From contig CAWDOY010000025.1 of NCBI GenBank assembly GCA_963803975.1, positions 91,106 through 155,105 on the forward strand: a stretch of 64,000 bases of DNA, written 5' to 3'. Position 1 is the stretch's first letter; every line of letters starts with the position of its first letter. Origin of the DNA: an uncultured delta proteobacterium (GTDB taxonomy: Bacteria > Desulfobacterota > WTBG01 > CAIYCZ01). This document shows, piece after piece, positions 20,474 through 50,116 of the stretch. The position numbers and the translations under genes are program-made. A model generated the notes under the pieces. It worked only from the letters and a program-made list of their open reading frames with translations, made no database searches and was not told the origin of the DNA.

Positions 20474-20828
20474 ATGATCCTCCTTTCACTTGTTTAAACT
20501 GGCACAATCCGCACAGCGCCACTTCCCCTGCAATGATCCCGTATGCTGATATGCCTTTGCCCTGCTTGCACACCAAACACCTCATGATTTACGGGGTGCC
20601 GGGTTCGTAATGGATTGTTAATTAGGGCACATAATGTTGTAATAAATTGTCGCAGCGACTATTAATAAAATGACTTGTTCCATGATTACCCTCTCTTTGC
20701 TATTTCTCTTTTTCTGCACATATCACTCTCCTTTGAAAAAGCCTCAGTCAGCAAAAAAACTGAAGGGAACGTTTAGAATTGGGTTGTTCGATTGAATAAA
20801 TCTTAGCTTTAAATATCCCCATTGTCTG

Positions 20829-21173
20829 TCAGGAAAGTTTGACATTTTGTGTAGGGAATGTTTGATTGATTAAGCCCTCCATTCCCGTTGGGTGGAAAAC
20901 GGTGTGGAACAGCATTTCATAGGGCTCTTGGAGAAGGCTCATCGCTCCCCGAAGTACCCTGAAACGCCCTGACTTCAGGTAGCTCTTAAGGTTCTTTTGG
21001 GTATCCCATTCCTCAAGAAGACAGAGTTCATTTTCATTCTCCATACTCTGACAAAAGTCGCAGCGCCTGCATCCCTTCTCCGCTCGTATGGAGCCGATCA
21101 GTGAAGCAATCGTCTGTGACAGCTCCATGCGCTTCTCAGAAAGAACCTTCATTCGTATCATGATAAGTATCAT
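20829..21173 (-). CDS. Antibiotic biosynthesis monooxygenase (ABM) family protein, copy A
   Basis: IRAEKGC..LCLLEEWDT; near-identical to 27871..28236. Confidence 0.8.
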   Translation of the reverse strand: MILIMIRMKVLSEKRMELSQTIASLIGSIRAEKGCRRCDFCQSMENENELCLLEEWDTQKNLKSYLKSGRFRVLRGAMSLLQEPYEMLFHTVFHPTGMEGLINQTFPTQNVKLS

Positions 21174-21185
21174 GAAGACTCTAAT

Positions 21186-21202
21186 TGCAAAGGGGTTGCC
21201 AA
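21186..21202 (-). promoter_or_regulatory. sigma54 -24/-12 promoter, copy A
   Basis: TTGGCAACCCCTTTGCA on the minus strand. Confidence 0.75.
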
Positions 21203-21450
21203 CAACCGTAAAAAACAAAAGTTTTGAATTAATCCTTTAATAACAGGGGTTTGGATTGATAGAAGAGAATTAGAGAAGTAAGAAACGATCTGGTTGGCCA
21301 CTATATTTAGTGGAACCTCAGCATATTGAGGGATACTTTGAAGGGAGGAGGACCGTCTAATCTGGTTCTTTTGTCTCCGGGCAGACCCAGGAAGAGCGCA
21401 AATGAAAATAATAATTAGAACCGTCCCCTTTTACTTTTAACGAATCGAAT

Positions 21451-23325
21451 TTAAACCATGATCGCGTGGCCGCAATCCGGCTGCAGTTGCTCCCTGGGTC
21501 GAAGCAAGAGCGGCTGGATCAGGAGGCGGATCTGTTCTTGAGCGTCTGCCAACGTCCCAACAACATGAGTTGCTGCGCCGCAACCGATGCGTTCTTTCGC
21601 CTTGTTCAGGTCGCCTTGAACGTTCCACAATCCCACGATCAGATGCGCTTCCGGAAAACGACCACGAAGACGCTTGCACAGGTACCGAGCATGCGTCGCG
21701 GCGGCGGGAGGCATGGCGGAAATACAAACCACATCGGCTTTACGCTGTTCGACAAGGTCAACCATCTCGCTGACCAGAGCCGTCACCGAGACGGCTTGCA
21801 CAAGGCATCCCGTCATCTCCAATACTTGCGCGAGCATCATTCCAGCGATTTCATCCGCCGCGTCGCGAGCGGGCAGGCAGAGGATGCAAAGCCTTGATGA
21901 GTCAGTCGCATTAACGAGACTGGAATCTGCGCATATCTTACGTGTATCATTCTTATCTTCTTGTAACTTCAATTCCTGCTGGCGCTCACCCAACTCTTCA
22001 ACCGTCTCCTTCAGGCTCTGGAACATGAACTTGTGCCTATCCTCGTTGAGGTCGCCGCGATGCCAATGCGTCTCGGCCATGGCCAGTGCCGGGATGAGCA
22101 CCGTGTCGTAGACTTCGACGAGGGGCCGGTGTTCAAGGTCATCCAGGACCAATTCGGCCGCCTCTTCCTGATCTCCCGCCAAAAGCCGCTGATAGACGCG
22201 CGTCTTCAGGTCAAAGACCGGTTCATTGCCCAGCAGCGTGTCCAGGAAGGACAGTTGCGGAACGTGCTTGCCGATCACCAGAAGGCACAGGGTCAACGGG
22301 GTCGCGACGAGCAGCCCTATAGGTCCCCATAACCAGGTCCAGAAGACAGCGGCTACCAGGATGGCCGTGGATGACATACCGGTGTTCTTGCCAAATATCC
22401 ATGGCTCCATGACGTTGGCGACGAAAAGCTCCAGAACCACAAACAGCCCCAACGTCAGGAGAAGCGTTACCCAGCCCGTAGAGATGGCCATGGCCAGGCC
22501 GAGCGGCGCTGCCGCAGCGCTCCACGCGCCGATGTATGGAATAAACCTCAAGGCAGTGGCCAGGATCCCCCACAGGATGGCGCTGGGCAAGCCGATGAAG
22601 TAAAGCCCGATGGCGATCGAAAGGCCGAAAGTGATATTGATTAACAATTGCGTCAGGAGAAAGCGGCTGACCCGCGTAATGGCGTCTTCCAGTGTCTGCG
22701 TGGTCACGGTCACTTGACCTCCCCCAATCAGGCGAATGAAGCGATCGCGCAAGTCCTCACGCCGGATCAGGAAAAACACCACCAGCACGATGACGATGCC
22801 GGTCGAGCACATCACCACGAACATCGAGCCGAACGTGCCTCCAATAACTTGCAGGGGGCTCGGTGGCGAGAGGACCACGCGAACCGGCTGGGGCTTTTCC
22901 TCGCGTCCCTGTGGCTCGTCGGCCGGCTCTGATGGCGGCACACTCTGGCCAATGTCTTCGGCTGTTGTTCTGACCTTGTTCAGCGCGGCCCTGAAATAGT
23001 CGTTGACCGAATGCAGCTTCGTTTGAATGTTCCTCTGGTATGCGGGTATTCTTGGGGCCAAGTCGATCATTTGAACCGTTATTGCCCATGCGCCTGTGCC
23101 CAGCAGCGTGAAAGCCAGAACAGCCGTAACCAACACGGACGGGATTCGACCCAATTTCCGCCGCTCCAACCAGCCACACACGGGAGCCAGAAGAAAGCTC
23201 AGCAGCACGGCCAGCGTCAATGGAATCAGAACGCCCCTGGCCAGGTAAAGAGCCGCCACCACGCCGGCGAGCGACGCCAGCGTCAACATCCACGACGACT
23301 TAATGAAATGGTCCGAGCTGCTCAT
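21451..23325 (-). CDS. AI-2E family transporter with C-terminal cytoplasmic domains
   Basis: Multiple TM helices, LRFIPYIG, FWTWLWGPIGLLVATPLT; C-terminal B12-binding-like Rossmann region. Confidence 0.85.
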   Translation of the reverse strand: MSSSDHFIKSSWMLTLASLAGVVAALYLARGVLIPLTLAVLLSFLLAPVCGWLERRKLGRIPSVLVTAVLAFTLLGTGAWAITVQMIDLAPRIPAYQRNIQTKLHSVNDYFRAALNKVRTTAEDIGQSVPPSEPADEPQGREEKPQPVRVVLSPPSPLQVIGGTFGSMFVVMCSTGIVIVLVVFFLIRREDLRDRFIRLIGGGQVTVTTQTLEDAITRVSRFLLTQLLINITFGLSIAIGLYFIGLPSAILWGILATALRFIPYIGAWSAAAAPLGLAMAISTGWVTLLLTLGLFVVLELFVANVMEPWIFGKNTGMSSTAILVAAVFWTWLWGPIGLLVATPLTLCLLVIGKHVPQLSFLDTLLGNEPVFDLKTRVYQRLLAGDQEEAAELVLDDLEHRPLVEVYDTVLIPALAMAETHWHRGDLNEDRHKFMFQSLKETVEELGERQQELKLQEDKNDTRKICADSSLVNATDSSRLCILCLPARDAADEIAGMMLAQVLEMTGCLVQAVSVTALVSEMVDLVEQRKADVVCISAMPPAAATHARYLCKRLRGRFPEAHLIVGLWNVQGDLNKAKERIGCGAATHVVGTLADAQEQIRLLIQPLLLRPREQLQPDCGHAIMV

Positions 23326-23583
23326 GCGGTTCTCTAATAAATCGGGATAGTTATTTATTTTGCTTCTCCTCAAACTGTGAATAAACTATTTGGGTGATTA
23401 TGTATCGTTATTGTTCATTCGTATTATATCCTGACGAGTTTTTCTGCTTTTCCCTACCTTCGTTTAGCGCCAGCACCTTTGCCGCCACCAGGCCCGATAC
23501 CCATATTGCACCCCGGAGGCAACTGAGCAATTTGTCCGGCTTTTCCTGATTTTTTCGATTGCTTTTTCCAGTAACAGAACGGA

Positions 23584-23853
23584 TTAACGGAAAAACGCCA
23601 GAGCAATGTCGGAGAGCGCGTTGACCACGGGTTGGGCAAACCGGCCGATACGCGAGCGACGAGAGCTTACACCAAAGAGAAACCCCAGTCCTGCTCCTAT
23701 CCCTAATGAGATAAGAATTGTCTTGCCCGGATTTTCGCTGCTAAAACTCTTGGCCTGCGCATACGTTTCGCTTACCGCCTGGGCTGTTTTATCATAAACT
23801 TCATTTACCGTTTCCTGCTTGGGGGTCTCGTTTTCGTTGTGTTCGACATCCAT
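23584..23853 (-). CDS. DUF883/ElaB-like tail-anchored protein
   Basis: ENPGKTILISLGIGAGLGFLFG. Confidence 0.65.
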   Translation of the reverse strand: MDVEHNENETPKQETVNEVYDKTAQAVSETYAQAKSFSSENPGKTILISLGIGAGLGFLFGVSSRRSRIGRFAQPVVNALSDIALAFFR

Positions 23854-23903
23854 GGTATCCTCCTAAGAAAGATTAAACGTTATTTCTTATTTTTAATAAC
23901 TTT

Positions 23904-24377
23904 TTACGTATCCACTCTCGGGCTACTGGTTGAACCACGTCCTGTCTGCGGTCGTGGCCCGAGGCCATTGCTTGCCATAGCTGTCGAGGTTGCGTTCTTT
24001 ATCCAGCTGGCGGCAGCCTTCGTGGCAATAGCCAGCAGGGTCAACTTGATTAGGCCGGGTCCAGTGGCTCCGGCAAGGCCACCGAGTGAGTCGTGAACTT
24101 CCTCGGCAATGGAACTCATGATTCGCTCCATGGGAGTAGCGCGTGTTATGAACATCCATGAGGCAAGATAGCCAATGCCGGCGGCAGCCCCCAGCGCCCA
24201 GTATGGAGAGTCCTTCACATATTCACGCCAATCCAGTTTCTCCTTGATACGATCGCCGATTTGCTCGACGGTCTGGGAAATGTTCTCTTCTCCTTTAGCT
24301 ATATCCTCACGTATATCTTCGGCACTGCGCTCGGCATCCGCCTCCTTTGTGTTATTTATATACTCTCTTTCAGCCAT
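23904..24377 (-). CDS. DUF3618-like protein
   Basis: SAEDIREDI..ISQTVEQIGDR..DWREYVKDSPY. Confidence 0.65.
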   Translation of the reverse strand: MAEREYINNTKEADAERSAEDIREDIAKGEENISQTVEQIGDRIKEKLDWREYVKDSPYWALGAAAGIGYLASWMFITRATPMERIMSSIAEEVHDSLGGLAGATGPGLIKLTLLAIATKAAASWIKNATSTAMASNGLGPRPQTGRGSTSSPRVDT

Positions 24378-24412
24378 TCCTTGTCCTCCTTTTCAACTGT
24401 TTGAATTGTCTT

Positions 24413-24769
24413 CTATGTTTTAAGGATCGATTTCTTCAATTGCTTGTAGCCGATGAAAACAATGACGAGACCGATTAAAGCAAGCGCCGCTCCAGTAACA
24501 AGCGCCGCAATGACGGGGGCCATATAAGCAGTGAGTCCGATGATCAATGCAGCGCAAAGAGACATGAATGCGGCAAAACTGATGACCGCTCCTGTCGCGA
24601 CGGTTAAGACTCCGCTGCGAACAGCCCTCACCTTTTCGCGAATTCCCTGGACCACGAGCTCAATTTCGTCGCGAAACATCGCGGTTGCGTTGTTGACAAG
24701 CTGTCCCAACAGTTCAGTGAAGGATTCGCGTTGTGTTGCAGGGTCCTTGTTTACCACGTTGTTGTTCAT
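24413..24769 (-). CDS. Holin-like (YqjE/Phage_holin_3_6) membrane protein
   Basis: SFTELLGQL..FRDEIEL then two TM helices; sits between DUF883 and DUF3618 genes. Confidence 0.75.
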   Translation of the reverse strand: MNNNVVNKDPATQRESFTELLGQLVNNATAMFRDEIELVVQGIREKVRAVRSGVLTVATGAVISFAAFMSLCAALIIGLTAYMAPVIAALVTGAALALIGLVIVFIGYKQLKKSILKT

Positions 24770-24786
24770 TGGGAAAAACCGCCTCC

Positions 24787-25140
24787 TTACCGGCGTCGCA
24801 CAAGAGCTCCGATAATCAGGCCGACCCCTCCTGTTATCAAGAGGCTGCGCCCCGGGTTCTGCCTGACGTATTCTCGTACCCTGGCATCTGCCTGCTCATA
24901 GTCGAACTGCCGAACGTACGTGGCTGATTGGTCCAACCACTCGGATGCCTGCTTTCCGTACTGAGCTATGCTGGATTGCGCGTCCTGATCTGCCGCTTTT
25001 TCGCCTAAAGCCTCAGCAACAGTATGCAACTTATCAGCAATAATATTTTTGACATTATCGAAGCCGGTTGACTTACCCGAACCTTGAGACTCTGCCGCGG
25101 GTTCTCCCGTTTCATCAACTACCCGATTGTTTATTCCCAT
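24787..25140 (-). CDS. DUF883/YqjD-like protein
   Basis: YVRQNPGRSLLITGGVGLIIGALVRRR C-terminus. Confidence 0.75.
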   Translation of the reverse strand: MGINNRVVDETGEPAAESQGSGKSTGFDNVKNIIADKLHTVAEALGEKAADQDAQSSIAQYGKQASEWLDQSATYVRQFDYEQADARVREYVRQNPGRSLLITGGVGLIIGALVRRR

Positions 25141-25185
25141 AGTTCACCTCATAAAAAGTTAAAGGGCGATGCTTGCAAAGCGACC

Positions 25186-25267
25186 TCATGTTTTAAGGAA
25201 TGCCAGCAGGTCGGCGTTGAGCTGGTCTTTGTGCGTGTCCGCGAGGCCGTGGGGTGCGCCCGCGTAG
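25186..25267 (-). pseudogene. 3' remnant of a non-heme haloperoxidase-like alpha/beta hydrolase
   Basis: Reads [26 protein letters not shown]. Confidence 0.7.
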
Positions 25268-25356
25268 GGGTTGCTTGCCCTCTTTGTCCCGTATTCCGAG
25301 CTCTTGTTATATCAACTCTTTGCTGATCATTAGCCTACCCCCCGCTGTGGATCGAC

Positions 25357-25569
25357 TCAGGTGCACCCACGCAGGAAAAATAGCACCAATAAGATCGGGA
25401 CCGGAACTCCCAATGCCCAAAGTAAAATCCACCCCACTTTCCCTTTTTCTGTTTTGGGGCGCCCTTTACTTTCTTTTTGTTCGCCCGACCCGCGATCATG
25501 GGACTTGCCGCGTGCCCTCTGCTGAGAATCCCATGCCTTCAGTAGTTCTTTTTCTTGTTGTTTTGTCAT
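25357..25569 (-). CDS. Small membrane protein
   Basis: C-terminal GWILLWALGVPVPILLVLFFLRGCT; start uncertain. Confidence 0.55.
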   Translation of the reverse strand: MTKQQEKELLKAWDSQQRARGKSHDRGSGEQKESKGRPKTEKGKVGWILLWALGVPVPILLVLFFLRGCT

Positions 25570-25606
25570 GATGCTTCTTCTTTATGATGATTTCAAAAAA
25601 ATCCTT

Positions 25607-25786
25607 CTACTTGCCCACCACTTTCTTTACCTGGCCTATCTTTTCCTGAACTTTACCGCCTAAATTTTCTCCCTTGCCTTCGGCTTCCAGATCGCGATTC
25701 CCGGCTATTTTCCCGACGACCTCCTTTATCTTACCTTTTGCCTGGTGCATCTTGCCTTCTGCGTTGTCTTGTGTGCTTGATTTCAT
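25607..25786 (-). CDS. csbD: CsbD family general stress protein (not in ORF track)
   Basis: MKSSTQDNAEGKMHQAKGKIKEVVGKIAGNRDLEAEGKGENLGGKVQEKIGQVKKVVGK; AGGAG RBS. Confidence 0.9.
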   Translation of the reverse strand: MKSSTQDNAEGKMHQAKGKIKEVVGKIAGNRDLEAEGKGENLGGKVQEKIGQVKKVVGK

Positions 25787-25992
25787 GGTATTTCTCCTGT
25801 TTGATTCTGGTTTGAGTCTTTTTTATCTATTTCTTTTTTTTCATGGGATCTTTGCCAGGTTTACTTTTAAACCGCTCCATCATCATCTGCCTGCCTTGAT
25901 CGCCGTCTCATATCTTCTATCTTGTCCTGCTTTCGATTTTGCATCATGCAGCTATAAAACACTGTCAGGTCGCTCTCAACATTGAACACGCG

Positions 25993-26442
25993 TCACCTCT
26001 TTACCACTAGAACCGGGATTTTGGTATCTTCGTGGATCACACCATAGGTAACACTGCCAAGGATCGCAGCTGCTAAAGCGCTTTGTCCATGGGAACCCAT
26101 AACAATAAGGTCTACCTTTGACTTCTTGGCCTCTTTCACAATCTCCGCAACAGGGTGTCCTGGTTTTATAACAGCCTTCGATTGAACATTTTTTGTTTCA
26201 CACAGTTTCGTTATTTCTCCAGCATACCCTTCAGCAGCCTCTCGCAGATAATCCTCGATAGGTTCTATTACATGCTTTGCCGTCTGCGCGGCAGGAACTG
26301 TCTGGCCCATAAATGAGCGTTGATCAATAACGCTCAGAACAATTACCGAAGCTTTCAACTGTTTTGCAAGATCAACCCCATACCTTGCTGCCTTTTGCGC
26401 TGTCTTTGACCCGTCTGTCAGCACAAGAACCTTTGAAATCAT
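25993..26442 (-). CDS. Universal stress protein
   Basis: KVLVLTDGS, DLIVMGSHG..ILGSV..PVLVV. Confidence 0.92.
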   Translation of the reverse strand: MISKVLVLTDGSKTAQKAARYGVDLAKQLKASVIVLSVIDQRSFMGQTVPAAQTAKHVIEPIEDYLREAAEGYAGEITKLCETKNVQSKAVIKPGHPVAEIVKEAKKSKVDLIVMGSHGQSALAAAILGSVTYGVIHEDTKIPVLVVKR

Positions 26443-26496
26443 GATCACTCCTTTAAAATCTCCAAATTTAATCTGCAAACAATTTGACTCGTGGCC

Positions 26497-27174
26497 TCAT
26501 GAAGGACATTTTTCCGGCGGTTCTTCGCAATAATTTCTTGTATCTATTCCCCCCCCAAACAAACGCTGTCTTCCACATGACGCGCTAAGGGGTATTGACA
26601 GCATACTCACTATTTCCTGCTTGGTGAGCGGAAGGTATATATTGACCTCCGTAGCTTGTCCCAGCCGTCTCTCTATTTTCATGCTCCCCTGATGCTGTTT
26701 GATAACGCGGTAACCTATCGGGAGAGCCGGACCCTTGCCCTGATTACCGGTTATATAGAATGTCTCAAATATTTTATCTTTAATCTTCTCATCAATAACT
26801 ACGCCTCTATCTGCAAGGGAAATGAATGCGCATGCACCTACCATAGAATCGTCCCCATCGAGAAGAGATTCGATTTCAAAATTGACCTGGTTGATATTCA
26901 GTGAAAATTTGCCGCTGCCGGGCATTGCATCCATTGCATTCTTTAAAAGGTGTGTCACTGCTTCTTTCATAAGGGCCATGTCTGCCATGATCCTCAGGTT
27001 TTTTTCTAAAAGTGTTATTGTTATGTCAATATCCCGGTCAACATACTGTGGCAACAAACCCCCCACCATTCTCGTAATCTCGTTGAGATCCGTCTCCTTC
27101 AACCGCTGTTTCTCGTCAAGGCTGAAAGCGGGGAGGATTTTAATTTGGGGTTGTTTTTGATAACTCGCTATCAT
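26497..27174 (-). CDS. Stand-alone degenerate HATPase_c domain protein
   Basis: HLLKNAMDAM N-box, DRGVVI, KIFETFY, GKGPAL; no HisKA H-box. Confidence 0.65.
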   Translation of the reverse strand: MIASYQKQPQIKILPAFSLDEKQRLKETDLNEITRMVGGLLPQYVDRDIDITITLLEKNLRIMADMALMKEAVTHLLKNAMDAMPGSGKFSLNINQVNFEIESLLDGDDSMVGACAFISLADRGVVIDEKIKDKIFETFYITGNQGKGPALPIGYRVIKQHQGSMKIERRLGQATEVNIYLPLTKQEIVSMLSIPLSASCGRQRLFGGGIDTRNYCEEPPEKCPS

Positions 27175-27392
27175 TTCACACCTCCAAAGCTATTTAGTTG
27201 GACTCGTTGAATAAGCAAGCCTGCCCCGCAGTCCTTCAAGAGCTTCAGCACTGCCGGAGTAAGCAAATACTCCTCGTCCGTTGGCACCTGCTCTGAAACC
27301 GCTTCAATAAGATCATACAGGGTTGTTGCGACATGAACTGATGGTCTTTGCTTTTGCCGGTACTCCAGAAAGTTACTCGTAACTGTCAGCAT
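27171..27392 (-). CDS. Small hypothetical protein
   Basis: GGAGG RBS; 4-bp overlap with the next gene. Confidence 0.6.
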   Translation of the reverse strand: MLTVTSNFLEYRQKQRPSVHVATTLYDLIEAVSEQVPTDEEYLLTPAVLKLLKDCGAGLLIQRVQLNSFGGVK

Positions 27393-27525
27393 TTTTCCTC
27401 CCTTTAATCCGGGCTACGGTAAGTAATCCGGAAGCTTTTACAGCAAATTTACTGCTATTGTCATGAACATTCATATACGTATTTTGCAGGAGCACTGGGT
27501 ACAACTCTCATGATCTATTCGATGA

Positions 27526-27783
27526 TTATTCAATGTTCCCCGCATACCCCTGGAACATCACGTGAGCATTCTGCATAACCTGGGTTATTGGAACAATCCT
27601 GCCGTCCTCAACAATGACGGGCAAAGGCCCTTTTCCATATAAACGTATCAGTTCATTAAATCCCGCTTCATTTTTGCCGACATCCACCTCTCTGTAGTCA
27701 ATGCCTTTTTCATTAAAATACTGTTTTATAACGCTGCAGTAGGTATCTGGGGACGTCGTATAAATTTCTCTTTTTCTGCACAT
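27526..27783 (-). CDS. Glutaredoxin-like protein lacking CxxC
   Basis: IYTTSPDTYC..KGIDYREVDV..LPVIVEDG. Confidence 0.7.
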   Translation of the reverse strand: MCRKREIYTTSPDTYCSVIKQYFNEKGIDYREVDVGKNEAGFNELIRLYGKGPLPVIVEDGRIVPITQVMQNAHVMFQGYAGNIE

Positions 27784-27870
27784 ATCACTCTCCCTTGAAA
27801 AAGCCTCAGTCAGCAAAAAAACTGAAGGGAACGTTTAGAATTGGGTTGTTCGATTGAATAAATTTTAGCT

Positions 27871-28236
27871 TTAAATATCCCCATTGTCTGTCAGGAAAGT
27901 TTGACACTTTGTGTAGGGAATGTTTGATTGATTAAGCTCCTCCATTCCCGCCGGGTGGAAAACGGTGTGGAACATCATTTCATAGGGCTCTTGGAGAAGG
28001 TTCATCGCCCCCCGAAGTACCTTGAAACGCCCTGACTTCAGGTGGCTCTTAAGGTTCTCCTGGGTATCCCATTCCTCAAGAAGACAGAGTTCATTTTCAT
28101 CCTCCATACTCTGGCAAAAGTCGCAGCGCCGGCATCCCTTCTCCGTCCTTATGGAGCCGATCAGTGAAGCAATCGTCTGTGACAGCTCCATGCGCTTCTC
28201 AGAAAGAACCTTCATTCGTATGATGACCAGGATCAT
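27871..28236 (-). CDS. ABM family protein, copy B
   Basis: MILVIIRMKV..IRTEKGC..LLEEWDTQENLKSHLKS. Confidence 0.82.
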   Translation of the reverse strand: MILVIIRMKVLSEKRMELSQTIASLIGSIRTEKGCRRCDFCQSMEDENELCLLEEWDTQENLKSHLKSGRFKVLRGAMNLLQEPYEMMFHTVFHPAGMEELNQSNIPYTKCQTFLTDNGDI

Positions 28237-28248: not shown

Positions 28249-28265
28249 TGCAAATGGTCTGCCAA
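28249..28265 (-). promoter_or_regulatory. sigma54 -24/-12 promoter, copy B
   Basis: TTGGCAGACCATTTGCA, immediately downstream of a sigma54 activator gene. Confidence 0.78.
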
Positions 28266-28364: not shown

Positions 28365-28398
28365 CCTCAATATTTGGTGGAACCTCAACATATTGAGG
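28365..28398. promoter_or_regulatory. Tandem 16-bp palindromes, candidate upstream activator sequences
   Basis: CCTCAATATTTGGTGG and CCTCAACATATTGAGG; copy A 21298-21331 has CCACTATATTTAGTGG and CCTCAGCATATTGAGG. Confidence 0.55.
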
Positions 28399-28423: not shown

Positions 28424-30403
28424 CTAATCTGGTTCTTTTGTCTCCGGCCGGACTATCCCGAGCTTATGCATCCTCGCTCTCAAGGTGCTCGGGTGGAGGC
28501 CCAGGATCGCTGCGGCCCCGTCCTTTCCCTCGATGCGCCATCGGGTTTCCGAAAGGATTTTAAGAATTTGGTTTCGCTCCGTCTCTTCCAGGGTTCTCAC
28601 GGCGGATGAAAGCGGGGGGGATGAAATCTCCAGTTTATCTGCCAGCTGCAAAACCGGCCCGGGGCACAAGATCACGGCCCGTTCAATGATGCTTTCCAGC
28701 TCCCGGACGTTCCCGGGCCACGGATAATCCTGCAGCGCCTTCATCGTCTCCTTCTGGATCGACGTGATCTGTTTGCCCAATTTCCTGGAATACCGCTCTA
28801 TGAAGGCCTGGACCATCAGCGGGATGTCTTCTTTCCGCTGCCGTAGTGGCGGGACAGTGATGGGGAAGACGTTGAGCCGATAGTAAAGGTCCTGCCGAAA
28901 CCGGCCCTTGCGGACCTCTTCCTCAAGGTTTCGATTGGTCGTTGCCACGATCCGCACATCGACTTTGATGGTATGGGACGAGCCCAGGCGCTCAAACTCG
29001 TTATGCTGGATCACCCGGAGCAGCTTGGCCTGCATCTCCAGCGGCAGCTCCCCGATCTCGTCCAGGCAAAGGGTGGAACCATTGGCGATCTCGAACCGGC
29101 CTATCTGCCGGGTATCGGCCCCGGTAAATGCCCCCTTCTCCCGGCCGAACAATTCGCTCTCGATCAAATTGCCCGGCAGGGCAGCACAGTTGACGGTGAT
29201 CAGCGGCCGATCCTTGCGGGGACTCATGTTGTGGATGGCGGCAGCGATCAGCTCCTTTCCCGTACCGGTCTCACCGAGGATGAGGACCGTTGTGTTCGCA
29301 GGAGCAACCTGCTCCGCTCGATAGAGAACATACTTGAGACCATCACTTTGCCCGATAATATGCTCAAATTGATGTTTCATTTTGATCTCTTGACGGAAGT
29401 AAATATTCTCGGCCTCGAGTTGGTCTTTCATTGTTTTGATTTCAGAAAGAGCCGTCCGAAGTTCGACAGCTTGTCGTTCCAGTTCGTTGTGAGATTTTTG
29501 TAAAGCCTCTGCTGTAAGTTTCCGTTCAGTGATATCGCGGATGTTACACTGAATCACTTTATGATGATTAACCAGATAGACATTACTGACAAATTCCACG
29601 GCAATTGTCCGCCCGTCTTTCGTCTCCAGCGGTAAATCATGGTAGCGAACATATCCTTTGCTCTTCAATTCCGAAGAGGTGGCTTTCGATGCTTCAATAT
29701 CTCTAAAGGTGCCAATTTCCCAGAGTTTCTTCCCTAAGAGCTCCTCATGTGAATAACCCAACATTTCTACCAAGAATGGGTTAACATCCGCTATTTGTCC
29801 TGTCTCGGCATCGAGGATTAATATTCCATCTTGGGCTGCTTCAAAGAGACGGCGGTAGCGAGTTTCAGAATTCTTTAGCGCCTCCTCCATCTTCTTGCGC
29901 TCGGTGATGTCCACCATTACGGCGCACACCGCACCGGGCATATCCGTGTGCTGAAGGGCACTTATGGAAAGTAAGACAGGTACGGAATTTTCACCTCCGG
30001 TCTGTAAGGCCAGTTCCCCCTTACTGTTCCCCTTTAAACCCTGCTCAACCAATGCCTCAAATAATTGAAGGTCTGTTGATGAAATGTATTGGTAGATTGA
30101 AGATCCTATTACTTTTTCCAGAGACTCTTTGACGATATCTGCAAAACGTTGGTTACAGAAAAGGATCGTGCCGTCGGAGGCCAGGGTGACGGCCCCTTCG
30201 TTCATGGTTTCGACCATGACCCTGTAAGGATGATCGGCGCCCGATAGGGTAAAGACCCGATCTCCTTCCGCCGTTGAGACAACCAGACCATCCACCTCAC
30301 CGCTTCGGATAGCGCGCAGCGTTTCCTCGGCTTCCATCATCCGCGATGTGAGTTCCTGCAACTCATCCAAAAGTTGCTGGCGTGTTCTATCCGATTTGTT
30401 CAT
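28424..30403 (-). CDS. PAS-PAS sigma54-dependent transcriptional activator (FhlA/HyfR-like AAA+ and HTH)
   Basis: Two PAS domains, [51 protein letters not shown]; no REC domain. Confidence 0.95.
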
Positions 30404-30413
30404 TGATTCGTAC

Positions 30414-30752
30414 TCATGAATTCTTGGGTTTCAGATCGATGCCTACAAGAAACCTTTCCGTATCCGACATGTCGCCGATGAGCTTCCGGAGCGGCAGGGG
30501 GAGTTTCTTGATGAGCGTTGGGGTGGCAATAATCTGCTCTCCCTTGGCCAGCTTGGGCTGCTGGTAGATGTCTATCACCTCGAGTTCGTAGCGGCCTGCC
30601 AGGTATTTTTCACAGAGTTTCTGGACATTGGCGATTGCCAGGGTTGACTTTGGGGTCATCCCTGTAACATACAGCCGAAGAACGTACTTTGCCCGGTCTC
30701 GCTTCGCTGCCGCTTTTTCGAATTCCTCAGTGCTCGTTTTCCCTCTTTTCAT
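30414..30752 (-). CDS. kaiB: KaiB family protein (second copy)
   Basis: [46 protein letters not shown]. Confidence 0.93.
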
Positions 30753-30784
30753 TCTCCATCGCTGTTACTCCAAAATTGATTTTA

Positions 30785-31117
30785 TCATCCGGAGACAGAA
30801 CGAATGTCGAGTCCCACCAGCACGCGCTCTGTGTTGGCCAGATCTCCGATAATCTTTTTAAGCGGTTCAGGAAGCTTCCTGACCAGTGTCGGTATGGCAA
30901 TAATCTGGTCCCCTTTGGCAAGCTGGGGATTCTTTAAAAGGTCTATCACTTCAATGCGGTATTTCCCCGCAAGGTGCTCTTCGCAGATCTTCTTTAAATT
31001 GGCAAAGGCCGTAATCGATTTCGGGGTCTGACCGGCTACATATAACCGGAGATTCCAGATTTCTTCTGTCGCATCGGTCTTTGCTTTCTTCCCCTTTCCT
31101 GGTGAGACAGCTTTCAT
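30785..31117 (-). CDS. kaiB: KaiB family protein
   Basis: [44 protein letters not shown]. Confidence 0.95.
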
Positions 31118-32869
31118 CTTACTCTCCTTTCCCTCTTCTTTTTCGAGCGCTTCGCCGGCGGAGCTGAAGGTTTCCCCTTGCGAAGATGCGCCATTTCCAA
31201 ACGGTCTTCTGCCAGGACAGCTTGTCTTTTTTGCTCTTCTTCCGCCATCAAATGCACCTCTTCAGTTTCCACATCGAACTCGGCACGCAGCGCTGCGATC
31301 TTTGTTTCCAGGGCATTCCTCTTGCGCTCCTGCTCGCGGAGCCTGCGATCCGCCTCACGCCGGCATGCCAGCTCAGAGGCCTTTTCCCCGGCTTCCTGGG
31401 CTGCCCGGGCACTGCCGGTTAATACCTCGCCGGAACCGGTATAGATGTCGATCAGGTCAATGCCCTGGTTCGTGAGCAGGAACTCTTGAATCTGGTTGGA
31501 GTGGGCCATGCCGCGGGACTTCAAAATGTAGAGGCCCCGGTTGCGTTCCCCGTTGAGTTCGATATCCCGGAGGAGAAGCCACGTATCGATCAGAGAAGAT
31601 ATCTCTTCGCTCGTGTGTTCAAGGCTGCCTCCAAAATGGGTGAGGTCCGTAAGGAAAGTAGAGATCTTTTTCATCTTCAAATAGTCGATCAGGCGCGTTA
31701 AGATGGATTTGACCTCTGATGCTGTTCCCGCGGCGCTCAGGTTGCTGATCGGGTCTACAATGAAAACCTGGGGATTGAACTCCTCGATCACCTTGTGGAA
31801 GGTGACAAGATGCATCTCAAGGCCGTAAAGCGAAGGCCGGGCTGAATGAAACTTGAGAAGCCCCTTCTTCACCCACCGGGCGAGATCGATGCCGATGGAG
31901 CCCATGTTCCGGATGATCTGGCTGGGCGATTCCTCGAAGGCAAAATACAGGCAGCGCTCACCACGCCGGCAGGCGGCGTCGGCAAAGGTAGCCGACAAAC
32001 TTGTTTTGCCTGTGCCCGCCGTACCGGAGACGAGGATGGTGCTGCCCCGGTAGAACCCCTTCCCATCAAGCATTGCATCCAACTTGGGGACGCCCGTGGA
32101 GATGCGCTCCGTGGAAACGGGGTAGTCGAGCCCCAGGGAAGTGATGGGCAGGATAGAGAGGCCGCTCTCGTCTATCAGGAAGGGATACTCGTCGGCGCCG
32201 TGAGATGAGCCGCGGTACTTGACAATACGCAGGCGGCGGGTGGAAATTTGCTCCTCGATGCGGAAGTCGAGGAAGATCACGCAATCGGCCACGTATTCTT
32301 CGAGCCCGTAGCGTGTCAGGAGTCTTGTCGCCGCTTTCCCCCGTAACGATGGCCGTCACACCGCGGTCTTTCAACCAGTGAAAAAGCCGGCGAAGCTCTG
32401 CCCGAATGATAGCGGCATTAGACAGCCCGGAGAAAAGTGCTTCTATGGTATCCAGGACAACCCGCTTCGCTCCGATGGAATCAATGGCATTCCCCAGGCG
32501 GATGAACAATCCTTCCAGGTCGTACTCACCCGTCTCCTCAATCTCGCTTCGCTCGATGTAGACGTGGTCCGTTGCGATGAGACCACGCGACATCATGTCA
32601 GGGAGATCAAAACCAAGGGAGATGAAGTTCTTCGCGAGATCCTCCGGCGTCTCCTCGAAGGTCATGAAGACCCCGGGTTCTCCGTAATCCATGGCGCCCC
32701 GCATGAGAAACTCCATGGCGAAAAGTGTTTTGCCGCAACCCGCACTGCCGCAGATCAGGGTTGGCCTGCCTTTCGGAAGCCCTCCCTTCGTGATCTCATC
32801 GAGACCCTTGATGCCCGTCGGGCATTTTTCAAGAACATCAACATCATGTTTTGCCTTAACCATCGTCAT
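31114..32869 (-). CDS. kaiC: Circadian clock-like double RecA ATPase/kinase KaiC, frameshifted near 32320
   Basis: [52 protein letters not shown]. Confidence 0.95.
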
Positions 32870-34144: not shown

Positions 34145-34345
34145 ATCGTACAGCAAGGCAGTCTCCGTTTCTTCTCCTGTTATTCAGCCTCTTCTGATAT
34201 ACCCGTTTGCCATCCGGTTCTATGATGCCGTAATATCCATTGTCTGAATGTTAATCTACTGCTGCTATACGTTCCATCGTTATTCCTCCTGTAATATTTT
34301 TTATGGTACTTCCAGCTTTACAGGAATCTTTAACGAATGGTAACT
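34145..34345 (-). mobile_element. Degenerate IS110-like transposase 5' fragment, copy 2
   Basis: AGGAGG RBS and ATG 34277: MERIAAVD*HSDNGYYGIIEPDGKRVYQKRLNN, resembling the DEDD N-terminus (GIDLHSNN..VYQKRLPN). Confidence 0.6.
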
Positions 34346-35702
34346 AATAATATTGCTCAAAGCATCGTTTCAGGGACGGCGAGTGTTTTAACTTGGCAAG
34401 CGCCTTGTCTTCAAGCTGCCGTATCCGCTCCCGCGATAAATTGAATCTGTGCCCGATCTCCTCCAGGGTATGCTCTGCGTCGATTCCGATACCGAACCGC
34501 AGTTTGATGATTTCCTGTTCGCGGGGGGCAAGTATTTGCAGAGCCAGCTCTGCAGTTTGCAGACGCTGGTCCTTCAATATCTCATCAAGCGGTGAGGTGT
34601 TTGAGGGATCTTCAATAAAATATTTTAAGGGGCCGTCTACTTTTCCCACGGGGGTTTCCAGTGAAATGGTATCCTGCAATATCTGCTGTATCTCATCAAC
34701 ATGTCTCGAGGAAATACCCATTGCTTCAACAAGCGATGACCGCACCGGCGCTTTGCCGGTGTCCTGTACGATCTGCCGGGTTATTTTTTTCATTTTTTTC
34801 AGCCGTTCATTTATATAGACCGGTAAGCGGACGCTGCTTCTCTGCCCGTCGATGCAGCGCACTATTGCCTGCCGTATCCACCAGGACGCATAGGTGCTGA
34901 AACGGGCACCCAGGCGATAGTCAAACTTTTCTGCCGCCCGCATCAGGCCGATGTTTCCTTCCTGAATAATATCAGCAAGCGGCATCCCCCAGTTTAAATA
35001 CCGCCGGGCAAGGCCCACCACCAGCCGCAGGTTTGATTTCACAAGCCGGGCGCGTGCTCCCTGTGACCGTGCTTCGGCAGTTTCTATTGCCTGCATCATG
35101 CGCAGTATTTCTTTTTCAGCTTTCACCTTCTGCCGCGCGTTTACACTTGCCAACATGCTTAATTTCTCTGAAGAATTGTGCGGTCTTTGAGCGCGCGAAG
35201 GTCGACCTGCGAAACAACCGCGCAAAACTCACTGACGATTTTCGCTTTGCTGCGGTTGAGCTTCCGGCGCTCATAGGAGCCGGGAACGCTCTTCTGTATC
35301 GAGCGCTCCAGCGTCTTTATTTTTTTCTGCAATGATAGCTGCTGTCATGCATGCCCGCACTATCGGATGCGCATCCGTTGCGGCAGTCAGGAAGCGCCGC
35401 TTATCAATGAGCTGCGCAACGTACAGCAGGAGCTGCCCGGTCAGCTCCTGCTTGTTCTTCTCCTGCTCCACGCTTTCTTTGCCCAGCGTAATTTCTTCCT
35501 GTGGTGTGAGCAGCACGCTGGTGCGCAGCTCCTTTAAGTAGGCTGACAGTATATCTTTATCCCGCGCCTCTCTGGTTGACTGAGCGGTTGAATCATCCGC
35601 TGTATCTGCAGCCGCATCATGGCCGCTATTGAGCAATGGTTCATTCTCTTCAACGCTTATGATTTCTTCCAAGTGTGTATCCAATGCGTAAACAGTTTCC
35701 AC
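34344..35702 (-). CDS. sigma70-family group 2 (RpoD/RpoS-like) sigma factor, frameshifted near 35230-35290
   Basis: Region 1.2 AYLKEL..LLTPQEE; SNLRLVV, QEGNIGLMRAAEKFDY, FSTYASWWIRQ, TLEEIG..SRERIRQLE; no region 1.1. Confidence 0.9.
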
Positions 35703-35748
35703 GTTCGCACCCCCTTTGAAAATGTTGTTGTCTCTTGTCTGTCCTCTG

Positions 35749-36201
35749 TCATCTGTCTTTGTGATGCGGTGCGCGCAGCACCAGCACCGGACAGGTTGCA
35801 AGTCTGATGACTTTCTCTGCTACTGAGCCGAAAATGAAATGGTGAAAGGCTGATTCCCCGTGAGTGGCAATGATAATAAGGCCCATGTTATTCTCATCAG
35901 CACATTTCACTATCTCTGCCGCAGGGCTTCCCATTTTGAGTATGGGATGAATCTGCAGCTCGCCCCCACCATGCTCTGCGGCAATTTTTTGTAATGCAGT
36001 GCGGGTAGACTCAATAAGTTCCTGCTCGAACGCGGGCAGGCTGATGGTCAGCTCAGCACTGAATGCGGTAACAGGCTCTACGACATGAATCGCCCATACT
36101 TCACTGGATAATCTGGCAGCAAGCTCTTTCACTGTTTCAAGTGCTTTGTACGACGCCTCACTGAAATCAGTTGGCCAGAGTATTTTTTTTAACGGCAACA
36201 T
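35749..36201 (-). CDS. Universal stress protein
   Basis: KILWPTDFS, IIIATHG..FGSVAEKVIRLATCPVLV. Confidence 0.93.
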   Translation of the reverse strand: MLPLKKILWPTDFSEASYKALETVKELAARLSSEVWAIHVVEPVTAFSAELTISLPAFEQELIESTRTALQKIAAEHGGGELQIHPILKMGSPAAEIVKCADENNMGLIIIATHGESAFHHFIFGSVAEKVIRLATCPVLVLRAPHHKDR

Positions 36202-36628: not shown

Positions 36629-37081
36629 CTACACCTCGTGTTTTTCCTTAAAGCCGGGGGATAAATAAAAGTCTCCGTTGCGGACAGTTTTGATGGCGGA
36701 AAATATTTCCGAGTCCATCTCTCCCTTCAGCAAATACCCTTCAGCCCCGCCGGCAATGGCGTATTCGAGATATTCTTTATTGTCGTAGATGCTCAGAAAC
36801 AATACTTTAACTGACGGGTACACCAGCTTAATCTGCCGGGCGGTTTCAATCCCGCCGAGGTACGGCATGGATATATCAAGGATAACCAGATGCGGCAATG
36901 CCTGCTGCTGAGCATTCAGCTTATATAAATAACCAAGCAGCTCCAGGCCATTGCCCGCCTCTCCGCAAATCATTAATTCGGGGTCTTCCTCGATGTAATG
37001 TTTCAGCTCTTCCCGGATCAGCTGGTTGTCGTCAGTCAGGACAATACTGTATGATTTCTGCGCAGACACCTTTGGCGACAT
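36629..37081 (-). CDS. Single-domain NarL-type response regulator (REC only)
   Basis: LTDD, ILDISMP, GYLLK; no HTH. Confidence 0.88.
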   Translation of the reverse strand: MSPKVSAQKSYSIVLTDDNQLIREELKHYIEEDPELMICGEAGNGLELLGYLYKLNAQQQALPHLVILDISMPYLGGIETARQIKLVYPSVKVLFLSIYDNKEYLEYAIAGGAEGYLLKGEMDSEIFSAIKTVRNGDFYLSPGFKEKHEV

Positions 37082-37277
37082 ATAATAGTTATTCCAGCTG
37101 ATTGTCGAATCCCTGCCTTAAAAGCCCCGTCCCGCTCAGACGGGATTGGCTGGGATTAAAAAGCAGGCATCGTATAATATAATTAATTGAGCACATGCGC
37201 CGTGCCAGGCACGGACTGCGTTACTTGTTTTGTAGTAAGTGTAGCAACACGATACAAACAATTTCAATAAGCAGTAA

Positions 37278-37309
37278 TACTCATTTTAGTATGGGTAGAA
37301 ATACGTATA
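37278..37309. promoter_or_regulatory. Second heptamer array
   Basis: TACTCAT-N6-ATGGGTA-N4-TACGTAT. Confidence 0.55.
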
Positions 37310-37858
37310 TAAGAGTTGAGAGTTGAGGAGTTGCGGAGTCGGTGAATGGGTGAGTCGGTCTACATACAGGTAAAAAGGTGAAGAGGCAACCACCTTCGAA
37401 GGCTACGGTGGGCAGCACGCAAAGGCATAAGGCCAAAGGTGAATGGGTGAATCGTGATAGGCAAAAAGGTTAATAGGTTTAGCCTTTTAGCCTCTTGACC
37501 TTTCAGATAGCCACTGTCCACTGATTTAAGCAGAATGGGTAACTCACTGTTTTTATGCTTGAACTTGAATGTGCATGTATGTAATATTGATTAGCAACTA
37601 TCGTAATCATTGCTAAGCAGGGTGATATCAATATGGTTGGATTACAGGCGCTTGAATCCAGACAGAATATTACGGGCAAAAAATCCATTGGTTTTGCTTC
37701 TTTCACACCGTTTTCTCACTTCTTGTTAAAGTCTTTCCTCCGTATCTCCAGGCCAGCAGCACAGCTATGTATTTCTGGTATTCGGTTGAGCAGAGCATAG
37801 AAGAAAGGGTTGCGATTTATCATAGCCGGCACTCTTATTGTTTGGAGGCAATAAGACC

Positions 37859-39991
37859 ATGAAGAAAAACAAATCAGTTTCCGGGAAGGTTCATGCGCAT
37901 CGGGAGGAAGCCGAACAACGGCTTGCTGCAAAAGGCACAGCCGCTGAACAACGCTCAGATGTTGATGCCCGGCTTGCGATTCACGAGCTGCAGGTGCACC
38001 AGATTGAGCTTGAGATGCAGAATGAAGAGCTGCGCAGAGCCCAGGCTGAGCTTGAAGAGTCGCGCAGCAGGTATAGCGACCTCTATGACTTTGCCCCGGT
38101 CGGCTATTTCACCTTTGATCAGCAGGGTCTCATCCTCGAAGTGAACCTTACCGGCACCACGCTGCTGGGCGTAGAGCGAAGCGCTCTGAGCAAAAAGCCC
38201 TTTGTCCTCTTTATCGCCCCGGAGCACCAGGACACATTCTATCTGCACCTCCGCCAGGTCATGCAAACCGGGACCCAACAGAGCTGCGAAATCAGGCTGA
38301 TCAGAAAAGACGGCACCTGGTTCCATGCGCAGCTTGCAAGCATAGCAGCAGATGATGGAAAACAGAATACCAGCCTTTGCCGGACCGTAGTGACTGATAT
38401 TACGGAGCGCAGGCAGGCGGGGGAGTCGCTGCGCAGAGCAAAAGATGATCTGGAACTGCGGGTGCAGGAGCGCACGGCAGAGTTGGCACGTGCTAATGAA
38501 TTATTGCTGGAAGAAATCCAGGAGCACAAGCGGATGCAGGAAGCCCTGCAAGCCGCTGCTCTTTATGCCCGGACCCTGCTTGAGGCAAATCTTGACCCGC
38601 TGGTCACCATCAGCAGGGACGGGAAAATAATGGATGCAAACCTGGCGACAGAGCAGGCAATAGGTCTTTCCCGTGAGCTGATAATCGGCAGCGACTTTTC
38701 AGACTACTTTACAGAGCCGATAAAAGCCCGCACGGGATACGAGCAGGTATTCAAACAAGGATTTGTACGAGACTATCCCCTCGCTATCAAGAGCCTGTCG
38801 GGCATGGTCATGGAGGTGTTATACAATGCCACGGTATTTAAAAACAGCGCCAATGAAGTGGAAGGTGTATTGGCCTCAGCCCGGGATATCAGCGCTCGTA
38901 AGCGCATCGAGAGAGAGCTCAGCCAAAGTGAGCAGCGCCTTAAAGATGCTCAGAAAATTGCCCATCTGGGCAGCTGGGAATGGGACGTTAATAGCGACGA
39001 GCAGCGCTGGTCGGAGGAGCTGTACCGCATTTTCGGCTACGACCCGCACAAAATGGCCATGACCCATGAAATTTCTTTTAACGCGATTCATCCGGAAGAT
39101 CAGGAGTATGTTACGCGGATGGTTTGGGAAGCATTGGAAACGAATGATGACTACAATATCGATTTCAGGGTTATTCGTGCCGATGGCACTATGCGCTTTT
39201 TAAATTCCCAGGCGAGACTATACCGGGATAATCAGGGCCGCCCCCAGAGAATGGTGGGGTCGGTGCTTGACATCACTGATAGAAAAAATATTGAAAGAGA
39301 ACTGCAGGAATCAGAGCAGCAGCTCCGCCGCCTGACTGCTGAACTCCTGATCGCCCAGGAAGCAGAGCGCAAGCGCATTGCCGGAGAGGTGCACGATGAG
39401 CTGGGCCAGTCCATGACCGTGCTCAAGCTCAGGCTGCGGACCATCGAGAAGCAGCTGCTCAAAGATCAGATTAAACTCAAAGGGGAGTGTCTGGACCTTT
39501 TAGGGTACGCGGACGGAATCCTGAAAAGTGTGCGCCGGATTTCCCGCGACCTGACCCCCTCCATACTTGAGGACCTCGGCCTGTCTGCCGCAGTGCGCTG
39601 GCTGGTTGATAATTTCAAGGAAAATCTGGATGTGAACATAGCATTGCAGGCGGTACCTATAGATTCTTTGGTGCCCAAAAACCTGCAGATTAATATCTAC
39701 CGCATCCTGCAGGAATGCCTGACCAACAGCGGAAAGCACGCCGAGGCGCAAAATATAACGGTGTCAATCCGGCAGCAGCAGGACGCGATGCTGTTCACGG
39801 TGGAAGATGACGGCAGAGGGTTTGACCCGGAGCAGCTTTTCAGCGAGAAGGCCCCGGCACAAGGTTTAGGGTTTACAACCATGCGGGAGCGTGCTTTATT
39901 ATTGAATGGAAAGCTCGACATATCGAGCTTTCCAGGAAGGGGAACCAGAATAACCCTGCAGATCCCCATGGACAGTGAAGGAGCGCTGTAA
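37859..39991 (+). CDS. Cytoplasmic multi-PAS histidine kinase (HisKA_3)
   Basis: Three PAS domains, QEAERKRIAGEVHDELGQ, YRILQECLTN, EDDGRGF. Confidence 0.93.
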   Translation: MKKNKSVSGKVHAHREEAEQRLAAKGTAAEQRSDVDARLAIHELQVHQIELEMQNEELRRAQAELEESRSRYSDLYDFAPVGYFTFDQQGLILEVNLTGTTLLGVERSALSKKPFVLFIAPEHQDTFYLHLRQVMQTGTQQSCEIRLIRKDGTWFHAQLASIAADDGKQNTSLCRTVVTDITERRQAGESLRRAKDDLELRVQERTAELARANELLLEEIQEHKRMQEALQAAALYARTLLEANLDPLVTISRDGKIMDANLATEQAIGLSRELIIGSDFSDYFTEPIKARTGYEQVFKQGFVRDYPLAIKSLSGMVMEVLYNATVFKNSANEVEGVLASARDISARKRIERELSQSEQRLKDAQKIAHLGSWEWDVNSDEQRWSEELYRIFGYDPHKMAMTHEISFNAIHPEDQEYVTRMVWEALETNDDYNIDFRVIRADGTMRFLNSQARLYRDNQGRPQRMVGSVLDITDRKNIERELQESEQQLRRLTAELLIAQEAERKRIAGEVHDELGQSMTVLKLRLRTIEKQLLKDQIKLKGECLDLLGYADGILKSVRRISRDLTPSILEDLGLSAAVRWLVDNFKENLDVNIALQAVPIDSLVPKNLQINIYRILQECLTNSGKHAEAQNITVSIRQQQDAMLFTVEDDGRGFDPEQLFSEKAPAQGLGFTTMRERALLLNGKLDISSFPGRGTRITLQIPMDSEGAL

Positions 39992-40638
39992 TGGCTGTTT
40001 ACCGTATTATACTGGCTGATGATCATCCGCTGCTGCGGCAGGGTTTAAAGAAGATCATTCACGAAAATGGCGGGATGAAGATCATCGGAGAAGCAGGTGA
40101 CGGCATGGAGCTGTTAAAGCTCCTGCCCAAAACAAACCCTGATCTGGTTATTATGGATATATCCATGCCAAAGCTCAGGGGCATCGAGGCCATCCCCAGG
40201 ATCAAAACGATTCATCCGCAGGTAAAAATTTTAATCCTTTCCATGCACGGGGATAAGGAATATCTCTGTCAGGCGATCTCGGCCGGTGCTGACGGGTACC
40301 TGTTAAAAGAAGATGCGGACAGCGAATTGTTTACTGCCATCGAAACTATTTTTCAAAATAAAATTTACATATCACCCATGCTCGCTGATATCAGCAGGGA
40401 GGACTGGGCCGAGCGCTGCCGCCAGAAGGACAAACCCTTTACGGTAAAAACCATGTCGCCCCGCGAGCAGGAAATTATAAAGCTTATTGCAGATGGAAAA
40501 ACCAGCAAAGAGATTGCCGACATTCTGTTTATCAGCTTCCGTACTGCAGAACGGCACCGCGCCAATATTATGAGAAAATTCGGCTTGAAAAAAACCGCCG
40601 ACCTGGTAAAATTTGCCATTGAAAAGGGTTATGTGTAA
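39991..40638 (+). CDS. NarL/LuxR family response regulator
   Basis: LADDHPL, MDISMP, SPREQEIIKLIADGKTSKEIA. Confidence 0.95.
   Translation: MAVYRIILADDHPLLRQGLKKIIHENGGMKIIGEAGDGMELLKLLPKTNPDLVIMDISMPKLRGIEAIPRIKTIHPQVKILILSMHGDKEYLCQAISAGADGYLLKEDADSELFTAIETIFQNKIYISPMLADISREDWAERCRQKDKPFTVKTMSPREQEIIKLIADGKTSKEIADILFISFRTAERHRANIMRKFGLKKTADLVKFAIEKGYV

Positions 40639-48462: not shown

Positions 48463-50116
<1,654 letters not shown>

Follow-up and report, generated by a model that had tools for sequence, protein, structure and literature searches.

The stretch of DNA analysed here, called the window, comprises 64,000 nucleotides (positions 91,106 to 155,105 of contig CAWDOY010000025.1, assembly GCA_963803975.1) from an uncultured delta proteobacterium of the Desulfobacterota. 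Its minus strand carries, between positions 28424 and 32869, a string of four genes: kaiC, two kaiB genes and a gene for a sigma-54 enhancer-binding protein (EBP, also called the activator below). The first 62 residues of the activator form a conserved module, which is the main subject of this work. The features of the locus are the following:

31114..32869, minus strand: kaiC, of the KaiC-RS (KaiC2) clade, with two ATPase domains, SS phosphosites and a C-terminal tail of about 100 residues; split in the assembly.
30785..31117, minus strand: kaiB1, 110 aa, PF07689, type nearest KaiB-RS.
30414..30752, minus strand: kaiB2, 112 aa, PF07689, a second conserved KaiB type (IYQQP, N-terminal xxFE segment).
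28424..30403, minus strand: sigma-54 EBP (activator), 659 aa, organized as module-PAS-PAS-AAA+-HTH.
30218..30403, minus strand: Kai-associated module (activator residues 1-62), with a long helix, a GEVDGLVV beta-hairpin and a short helix; predicted Kai-docking element.

The genes kaiC and kaiB1 overlap by 4 bp, 32 bp separate kaiB1 from kaiB2 and 10 bp separate kaiB2 from the activator gene, in agreement with the tightly spaced string reported in the preliminary description. The lack of kaiA in the window, also reported there, extends to the whole genome (98% complete): a search with KaiA (PF07688) gave no match in it and detected the Synechococcus control. This genome contains one kaiC, two kaiB and one rpoN. 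The GC content of the kai region does not differ from that of its flanks. Neither of the two marks of a KaiABC circadian oscillator, i.e., the presence of kaiA and the position of kaiB before kaiC, is found, and KaiB scores below the TIGR02654 cut-off.

The activator contains two PAS domains (65-170 and 182-293), a Sigma54_activat domain (349-515), an AAA lid and a Fis-type HTH. It has all the hallmarks of a sigma-54 EBP (GAFTGA, Walker A and B with LCLDEI as Walker B, R-finger, sensor II and HTH), and rpoN is present in the genome. There is no match to Response_reg in the protein at E<=0.001, i.e., no receiver of the NtrC type, no match to a KaiB domain, i.e., no KaiB-like N-terminal domain of the SasA type, and no LOV cysteine motif. 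Its best NCBIfam score is obtained with the FlhA/FhlA model, far below the cut-off of that model, and it stays below every NCBIfam equivalog cut-off. Only one other locus of the genome has a similar HTH (56%). The make-up first proposed (intact GAFTGA AAA+ domain, two PAS domains, no receiver) therefore stands, except that residues 1-62 were not distinguished in it as a separate conserved module.

No Pfam family matches residues 1-62, and searches of the PDB by sequence and by fold match the PAS part and nothing over the module. An Atlas search with the module region leads to an unnamed cluster at 0.96. In the AF2 model, a helix (8-34), two strands (39-44 and 47-52) and a second helix (57-66) precede the PAS domain, with a pLDDT of 58-87. 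Searching with a profile of 65 positions, the first PAS helix being included, gives 4217 clusters at E<=1e-10. Over 59 rows, the mean frequency of the top residue is 0.78 for residues 23-56 vs. 0.54 for the PAS core; the first PAS domain is poorly conserved.

The module is found next to kaiB. In 401 genomes of the phylum, there are 25 module matches at E<1e-20, of which 24 are directly behind kaiB on the same contig; the 25th is located at the start of a contig, and the kaiB pair of the same genome ends another contig. When the phylum is surveyed starting from kaiB (48 loci with 49 clusters; a borderline KaiB match is not included), the module comes next in 20/20 readable clusters with two or three kaiB genes, and three more such clusters reach a contig edge. 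Among single-kaiB clusters, three have the full module and 11 of the 14 divergent ones have a short GEVD-type form, as judged by motif. The neighbourhood survey proposed in the preliminary description thus finds the linkage kept in other genomes: among the best 79 of 431 confirmed GTDB loci, a set biased towards the query and containing kin that are not independent, kaiB is within 331 bp in 75. The four others are two loci with too little upstream DNA, one tandem second activator and one true orphan. The kaiB-linked GTDB loci span Acidobacteriota, Planctomycetota, Chloroflexota, Actinomycetota and methanogenic archaea. In two further samples, each including its centre genome (one unpublished genome being excluded), the link is observed for 12/13 loci of Pseudomonadota (the phylum of L126), the miss having 111 bp upstream, and for 8/8 loci of Acidobacteriota (the phylum of L131). 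The HWE kinase RSKD131_RS21470, encoded behind KaiB-RS in R. sphaeroides KD131, also carries the module (51 bits).

The kaiC of this locus was not found in the three genomes of the same family that were searched, which suggests that the kai locus is a mobile cassette. Could the module, then, be a generic dimerisation helix plus hairpin inherited with such a cassette, the genes sharing a promoter and the proteins never touching? Both the patchy distribution and the high identity across families speak for transfer of a cassette (the EBP clade spans many families at roughly 75-98% module identity, yet it was not found in the three same-family genomes either), and a long N-terminal helix before a PAS domain is common. 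However, this explanation is quite unlikely: (i) among about 1000 genomes sampled, the module is almost nowhere apart from kaiB-adjacent positions; (ii) it is more conserved than the PAS fold that follows it; (iii) it decays where kai is absent, since the GEVD-type motif is missing in 6/6 weak phylum matches without kai genes nearby and kept in 2/2 weak matches beside kai genes; (iv) the kai link holds across bacteria and archaea. Concerning vehicles of transfer, no module relative was found in viral contigs and carriage by phages is rejected, and 12 plasmid records, all from Alphaproteobacteria, contain module relatives.

The module is fused to several types of output. In an even sample of the phylum, the 23 full modules belong to 16 kinases, 4 EBPs, 1 HD-GYP protein, 1 LuxR protein and 1 truncated or unknown protein; the usual output of the module is thus the histidine kinase (16/23, vs. 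4 EBPs). Module-GGDEF fusions are found in Gammaproteobacteria, and 9 of the 120 nearest proteins have HisKA_3 in place of the sigma-54 domain. In a tree of 106 module-PAS sequences (quick LG+G4 with long-branch warnings, so that the number of origins is only indicative), 38 of the 39 EBPs are in one 45-row clade (SH-aLRT 100), which also contains 4 kinases and 1 LuxR protein. Since this clade is mixed, one EBP lies outside it, and some of its AAA+ domains are only 57-70% identical, it is likely that outputs have been exchanged more than once. At the level of domain organization, the same module can front a kinase, EBP, HD-GYP, GGDEF or LuxR output, and the AAA-HTH/promoter cassette can likewise be coupled to different inputs. 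The conserved unit is Kai plus the N-terminal module of 60 residues, rather than Kai plus an EBP.

Two arrangements of other loci are worth describing. L014:3880-6122 contains a kaiB1 remnant, kaiB2 and a module-HisKA_3 kinase 6 kb from the EBP copy, i.e., a recent output swap within one genome. In L092:3018-9272, genes for two proteins with the module, in tandem, and a CheB-like gene (recognized by eye) come after kaiC-kaiB-kaiB.

The range of outputs bears on the direction of the signal. The module might serve for input or tuning, binding KaiB in order to adjust the timer or feeding it a redox signal sensed by PAS, the AAA+ domain being set independently by PAS ligands. In the available part of PMC9478674, the PAS domains of KidA bind fold-switched KaiB and change the period, and the enzyme domains are dispensable for that; the R. 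sphaeroides kinase has been proposed as a redox input (available parts of PMC5520375 and PMC10931921); moreover, non-Kai activators likewise contain the second PAS and AAA+ domains. This direction is nevertheless rather unlikely, as five types of output retain the module, among them transcription factors without a catalytic route back to KaiC, the first PAS domain is poorly conserved and the protein lacks the LOV cysteine motif. The fusion of the module to DNA-binding outputs (EBP, LuxR) fits an output role better than an input role.

As regards kaiC, the gene is not a single reading frame, a point missed in the preliminary description. Because of one extra base near 32321-32323, a 267-aa reading frame follows KaiC only up to about residue 183, and the remainder lies in another frame. 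Both halves are 91-94% identical to one intact relative, close relatives mostly carry intact kaiC reading frames of 579-597 aa, and contigs in 8/8 runs, taken to come from relatives, have one base fewer at 32321-32323. The same +1 split pattern is observed in three housekeeping genes of the window, i.e., pheA (2227-3355), methylmalonyl-CoA mutase (48463-50116) and PEP carboxykinase (53045-54884), and the assembly seems to hold many indel errors. Because the relatives are intact and these genes are split alike, the kaiC break is most likely an assembly indel. Programmed frameshifting was considered and rejected: the site is in frame in 17/17 relatives printed, and the other splits fall elsewhere.

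It is still conceivable, though decidedly improbable, that the system is a decaying relic in this strain, with kaiC a true pseudogene and the activator constitutive or silent. Such decay would explain the frameshift itself, and split kaiC genes occur in 5 of the 85 loci having most of kaiC at >=50% identity (a set with at least one duplicate), this one included; L070 and L076 keep kaiB2 and the activator without kaiC, and the contigs devoid of the extra base are those of relatives only. Against it stand the shared +1 split of the three other genes, the different place of the break in each of the five loci and the identity of the kaiC halves to the intact relative. In any case, this alternative leaves the family-level reading untouched and is compatible with it.

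The two halves of kaiC together encode a KaiC with both domains and with the Walker A, EE and R-finger motifs. KaiC of the intact relative L078 matches KaiC-RS (8DBA) at 1e-192 vs. about 1e-97 for cyanobacterial KaiC. It aligns to 8DBA through residue 553, including the C-terminal coiled coil, with phosphosites ISSL vs. LSSL, and kaiC of the window has the same SS motif and 100-residue tail as L078. The kai part is thus a KaiA-less KaiC-KaiB-KaiB system of the Rhodobacter KaiBC type; a dodecamer, autophosphorylation and KaiB binding driven by ATP/ADP would follow by analogy only.

KaiB1 and KaiB2 are distinct conserved types, with nine positions fixed differently. The B1 profile gives KaiB-RS 136 bits and the B2 profile 122 bits, and the best PDB match of KaiB2 is KaiB-RS. 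The gene order B1-B2 is fixed, and kaiB2 is normally directly before the module. Operons with three kaiB genes (B1-B1-B2) are found at L044, L108 and L120, two of which are archaeal records. At L070:1110-3444 and L076:4504-8268, kaiB2 and the activator have no kaiC or kaiB1 nearby, and the activator of L076 (Planctomycetia) is interrupted. The phylum has a second Kai architecture, in which kaiB precedes kaiC and the pair is flanked by receiver-like and kinase-like genes (L020-L026, L030, L050, L054); the module is found in 0/9 clusters of that type.

The predicted target of the activator is directly downstream of its gene and includes the following elements:

28365..28398: predicted binding sites of the activator, in the form of two imperfect 16-bp palindromes in tandem (CCTCAA-N4-TTGAGG type), which lie some 135 and 150 bp before the predicted start.
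28249..28264, minus strand: predicted sigma-54 -24/-12 promoter TGGCA-N6-TTGCA, 13 nt upstream of the start codon (ATG) of the gene that follows.
27871..28236, minus strand: ABM-domain protein, predicted first target gene.
27526-27816, minus strand: glutaredoxin-like gene, after the ABM gene and followed by a HATPase fragment.
25993-26478, minus strand: universal stress protein (USP), after the HATPase fragment.
20702-21386, minus strand: second cassette copy, with the 3' tip of an activator gene, palindromes (21298-21331), a sigma-54 site (21186-21201) and an ABM paralogue.

A sigma-54 promoter had been proposed at this position. The site itself (28264-28249) is conserved, though in the window the motif by itself does not exceed chance (5 matches at <=1 mismatch vs. 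13 expected), so that conservation is what supports it. The conservation was measured in 79 homologous regions (77 of 80 metagenome loci plus the two of the window), which are close kin and thus reflect one lineage: GG-N10-GC is found 12-13 nt before the ATG in 78/79, and a Shine-Dalgarno-like word within 20 nt of the ATG in 0/79. At 28264-28234 and 21201-21171, the spacing of 13 nt between site and ATG and the lack of a Shine-Dalgarno word predict a nearly leaderless sigma-54 transcript. At least one palindrome is present in 73 of the 74 ABM upstream regions having 200 bp, and those at 28365-28398 have the top two position weight matrix (PWM) scores of the genome. Cognate upstream sites and a -24/-12 promoter are thus present as judged by conservation, and binding to this DNA is predicted. 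The second cassette copy (92.5% identity over 691 bp) is likely a second target of the same activator.

From 38 Kai-linked EBP loci, 29 remain for comparison (HTH >=75% identical and room downstream) after removal of five without a readable HTH, three with a divergent HTH and one too short. Downstream of these 29, a palindrome and a sigma-54 site are found in 20 and a promoter only in one. The genome-wide PWM search gives 12 matches, eight of them outside the two cassettes and with no sigma-54 site near any; shuffled sequence gives 3 and 6 matches per 1.5 Mb. For these reasons no wider regulon is claimed. As to autoregulation, there is no palindrome match at PWM >=14 upstream of kaiC. The scan for sigma-70 promoters and terminators remains at chance level.

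These data lead to the following proposal, held to be somewhat more probable than its contrary: the module likely docks on the Kai complex and likely gates the sigma-54 activator, which would fire the adjacent promoter and stress-type genes. Three steps can be envisaged. First, KaiC would phosphorylate without KaiA and bind KaiB according to the ATP/ADP ratio, as in KaiC-RS (available part of PMC10076222). In a sediment anaerobe, Kai would then act as an energy-state switch or an hourglass rather than as a light clock. Second, the module and the first PAS domain would bind KaiC-bound KaiB, as the PAS domains of KidA bind fold-switched KaiB; KaiB1, KaiB2 and KaiC are the candidate partners. Third, this binding would shift the helix-PAS dimer and license AAA+ oligomerisation on the palindromes (28365-28398), the GAFTGA loop then opening the two sigma-54 promoters (28264-28249 and, in the second cassette, 21201-21186). 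In EBPs in general, the AAA+ domain oligomerises and the GAFTGA loop serves to open the promoter.

Several observations weigh against this proposal: (i) the binding of the activator to Kai, like the regulation, is deduced from genomics, and the GTDB set is not neutral, as said above; (ii) linkage alone could come from the co-transfer of an adjacent cassette; (iii) the confidence of the AF2 model is only moderate over the module; (iv) L137 is an orphan with an intact motif; (v) the frameshift in kaiC may mean that the system is dead in this strain; (vi) among the 29 Kai-EBP loci, six have neither element and two have only a weak palindrome; (vii) among 21 metagenome ABM loci with more than 1.7 kb upstream, a Kai-type activator is found in only two, and most of the others combine a 91-95% identical AAA+ domain with another N-terminus or retain only a remnant of the activator. 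The targets in the ABM cassette are thus not Kai-specific and are fed more often by non-Kai activators. A prediction of the complex of KaiC CI (L078), KaiB1, KaiB2 and activator 1-172 gave a score of 0.07 and a mark of 0.32, with controls that did not fold, and it weighs neither for nor against the proposal. The direct route from Kai to sigma-54 proposed in the preliminary description is therefore retained in part. A one-component route is plausible, given the conserved linkage and the conserved target promoter directly downstream; on the other hand, the usual output is a kinase and the cassette is mostly non-Kai.

Other genes of the window can be mentioned here. Positions 12489-27816 hold a minus-strand run of stress- and envelope-type genes: USP, DUF883, a holin-like YqjE-type protein, AI-2E with a B12-binding-like tail, triple BON, DUF4398 and Ysc84. 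In L116 and L015, too, the cassette is followed by small genes of a similar kind. At 34344-35801, a sigma-70 family factor is interrupted in frame (two reading frames, one frame) and adjoins a USP and a set of NarL-type kinase and regulator genes (36629-40638).

Operons of kaiBC with PAS or kinase genes are already known, as far as the available parts of the sources go (PMC4794148, PMC3164672, PMC9478674). They report: a kaiC-kaiB-PAS/HK operon in Rhodopseudomonas palustris (PMC4794148); the presence, after almost every non-cyanobacterial kaiBC, of a kinase or GGDEF/EAL gene (PMC3164672); PAS-KaiB binding in KidA, with the idea that this might apply generally to PAS genes next to kaiBC outside cyanobacteria (PMC9478674). 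Likewise, from partial texts, kinases are described near kaiBC in Nitrospirota (PMC10278575), the R. sphaeroides kinase is proposed as a redox input (PMC10931921), and non-cyanobacterial Kai systems are said to require a different output (PMC5520375). No description of the module, or of a sigma-54 form of Kai output, was found in the literature searched, which did not cover most subscription papers and supplements.

The GEVD module has about an even chance of being the adaptor, so far missing, through which KaiC-KaiB timers outside cyanobacteria generally deliver their output, a functional counterpart of the KaiB-like domain of SasA, with the sigma-54 fusion as its shortest form. If so, kinases, cyclic-di-GMP enzymes and transcription factors belonging to thousands of protein clusters would carry it, and the sigma-54 fusion, which would read the Kai state into transcription without a phosphorelay, would be a ready reporter for a KaiBC hourglass. 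The module is a specific and mutable candidate for the delivery of the signal of KaiBC outside cyanobacteria. Its presence on the kinase beside the structurally solved KaiBC-RS makes it testable at once. The predicted binding site and promoter of the sigma-54 form would allow the Kai state to be read directly with a reporter of five parts. Of the two, the module is the finding of wider reach, and the sigma-54 fusion is the form in which it can best be tested. The locus further suggests a role for Kai proteins as energy or stress switches in dark, anaerobic sediments.

The closest known system is KaiBC-RS of Rhodobacter (Cereibacter) sphaeroides, an hourglass driven by ATP/ADP (available part of PMC10076222; PDB 8DBA, 8FWJ), together with the R. 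palustris operon. The order kaiC-kaiB-PAS protein and the lack of kaiA are the same. KaiBC-RS shares the long C-terminal tail and SS sites of KaiC, gives the best PDB match for KaiC and KaiB2, and has in KD131 a kinase that starts with the same module. The accessible parts of the KaiBC-RS papers neither describe this module nor include a test of the kinase. The differences are one KaiB there and two distinct ones here, a kinase there and a sigma-54 AAA+ activator here, and a host that is here likely an anaerobic Desulfobacterota, judging from its nearest named relatives. KidA of Synechococcus elongatus is comparable as a signalling protein that binds fold-switched KaiB through the PAS region at its N-terminus, but it has GGDEF-EAL domains, needs PAS-A to C and tunes the KaiABC clock (available part of PMC9478674). 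The SasA-RpaA system of cyanobacteria also has an N-terminal element thought to couple the Kai state to transcription; however, SasA uses a KaiB-like thioredoxin fold and phosphotransfer, whereas a helix plus hairpin (helix-hairpin-PAS in the model) and no receiver domain are found here. Finally, one-component EBPs like FhlA and NifA share the AAA+ domain with GAFTGA, the Fis-type HTH, palindromes at about -135/-150 and the -24/-12 promoter. The palindrome here differs from that of FhlA. The input is PAS rather than GAF, and it is predicted to come from a Kai protein partner.

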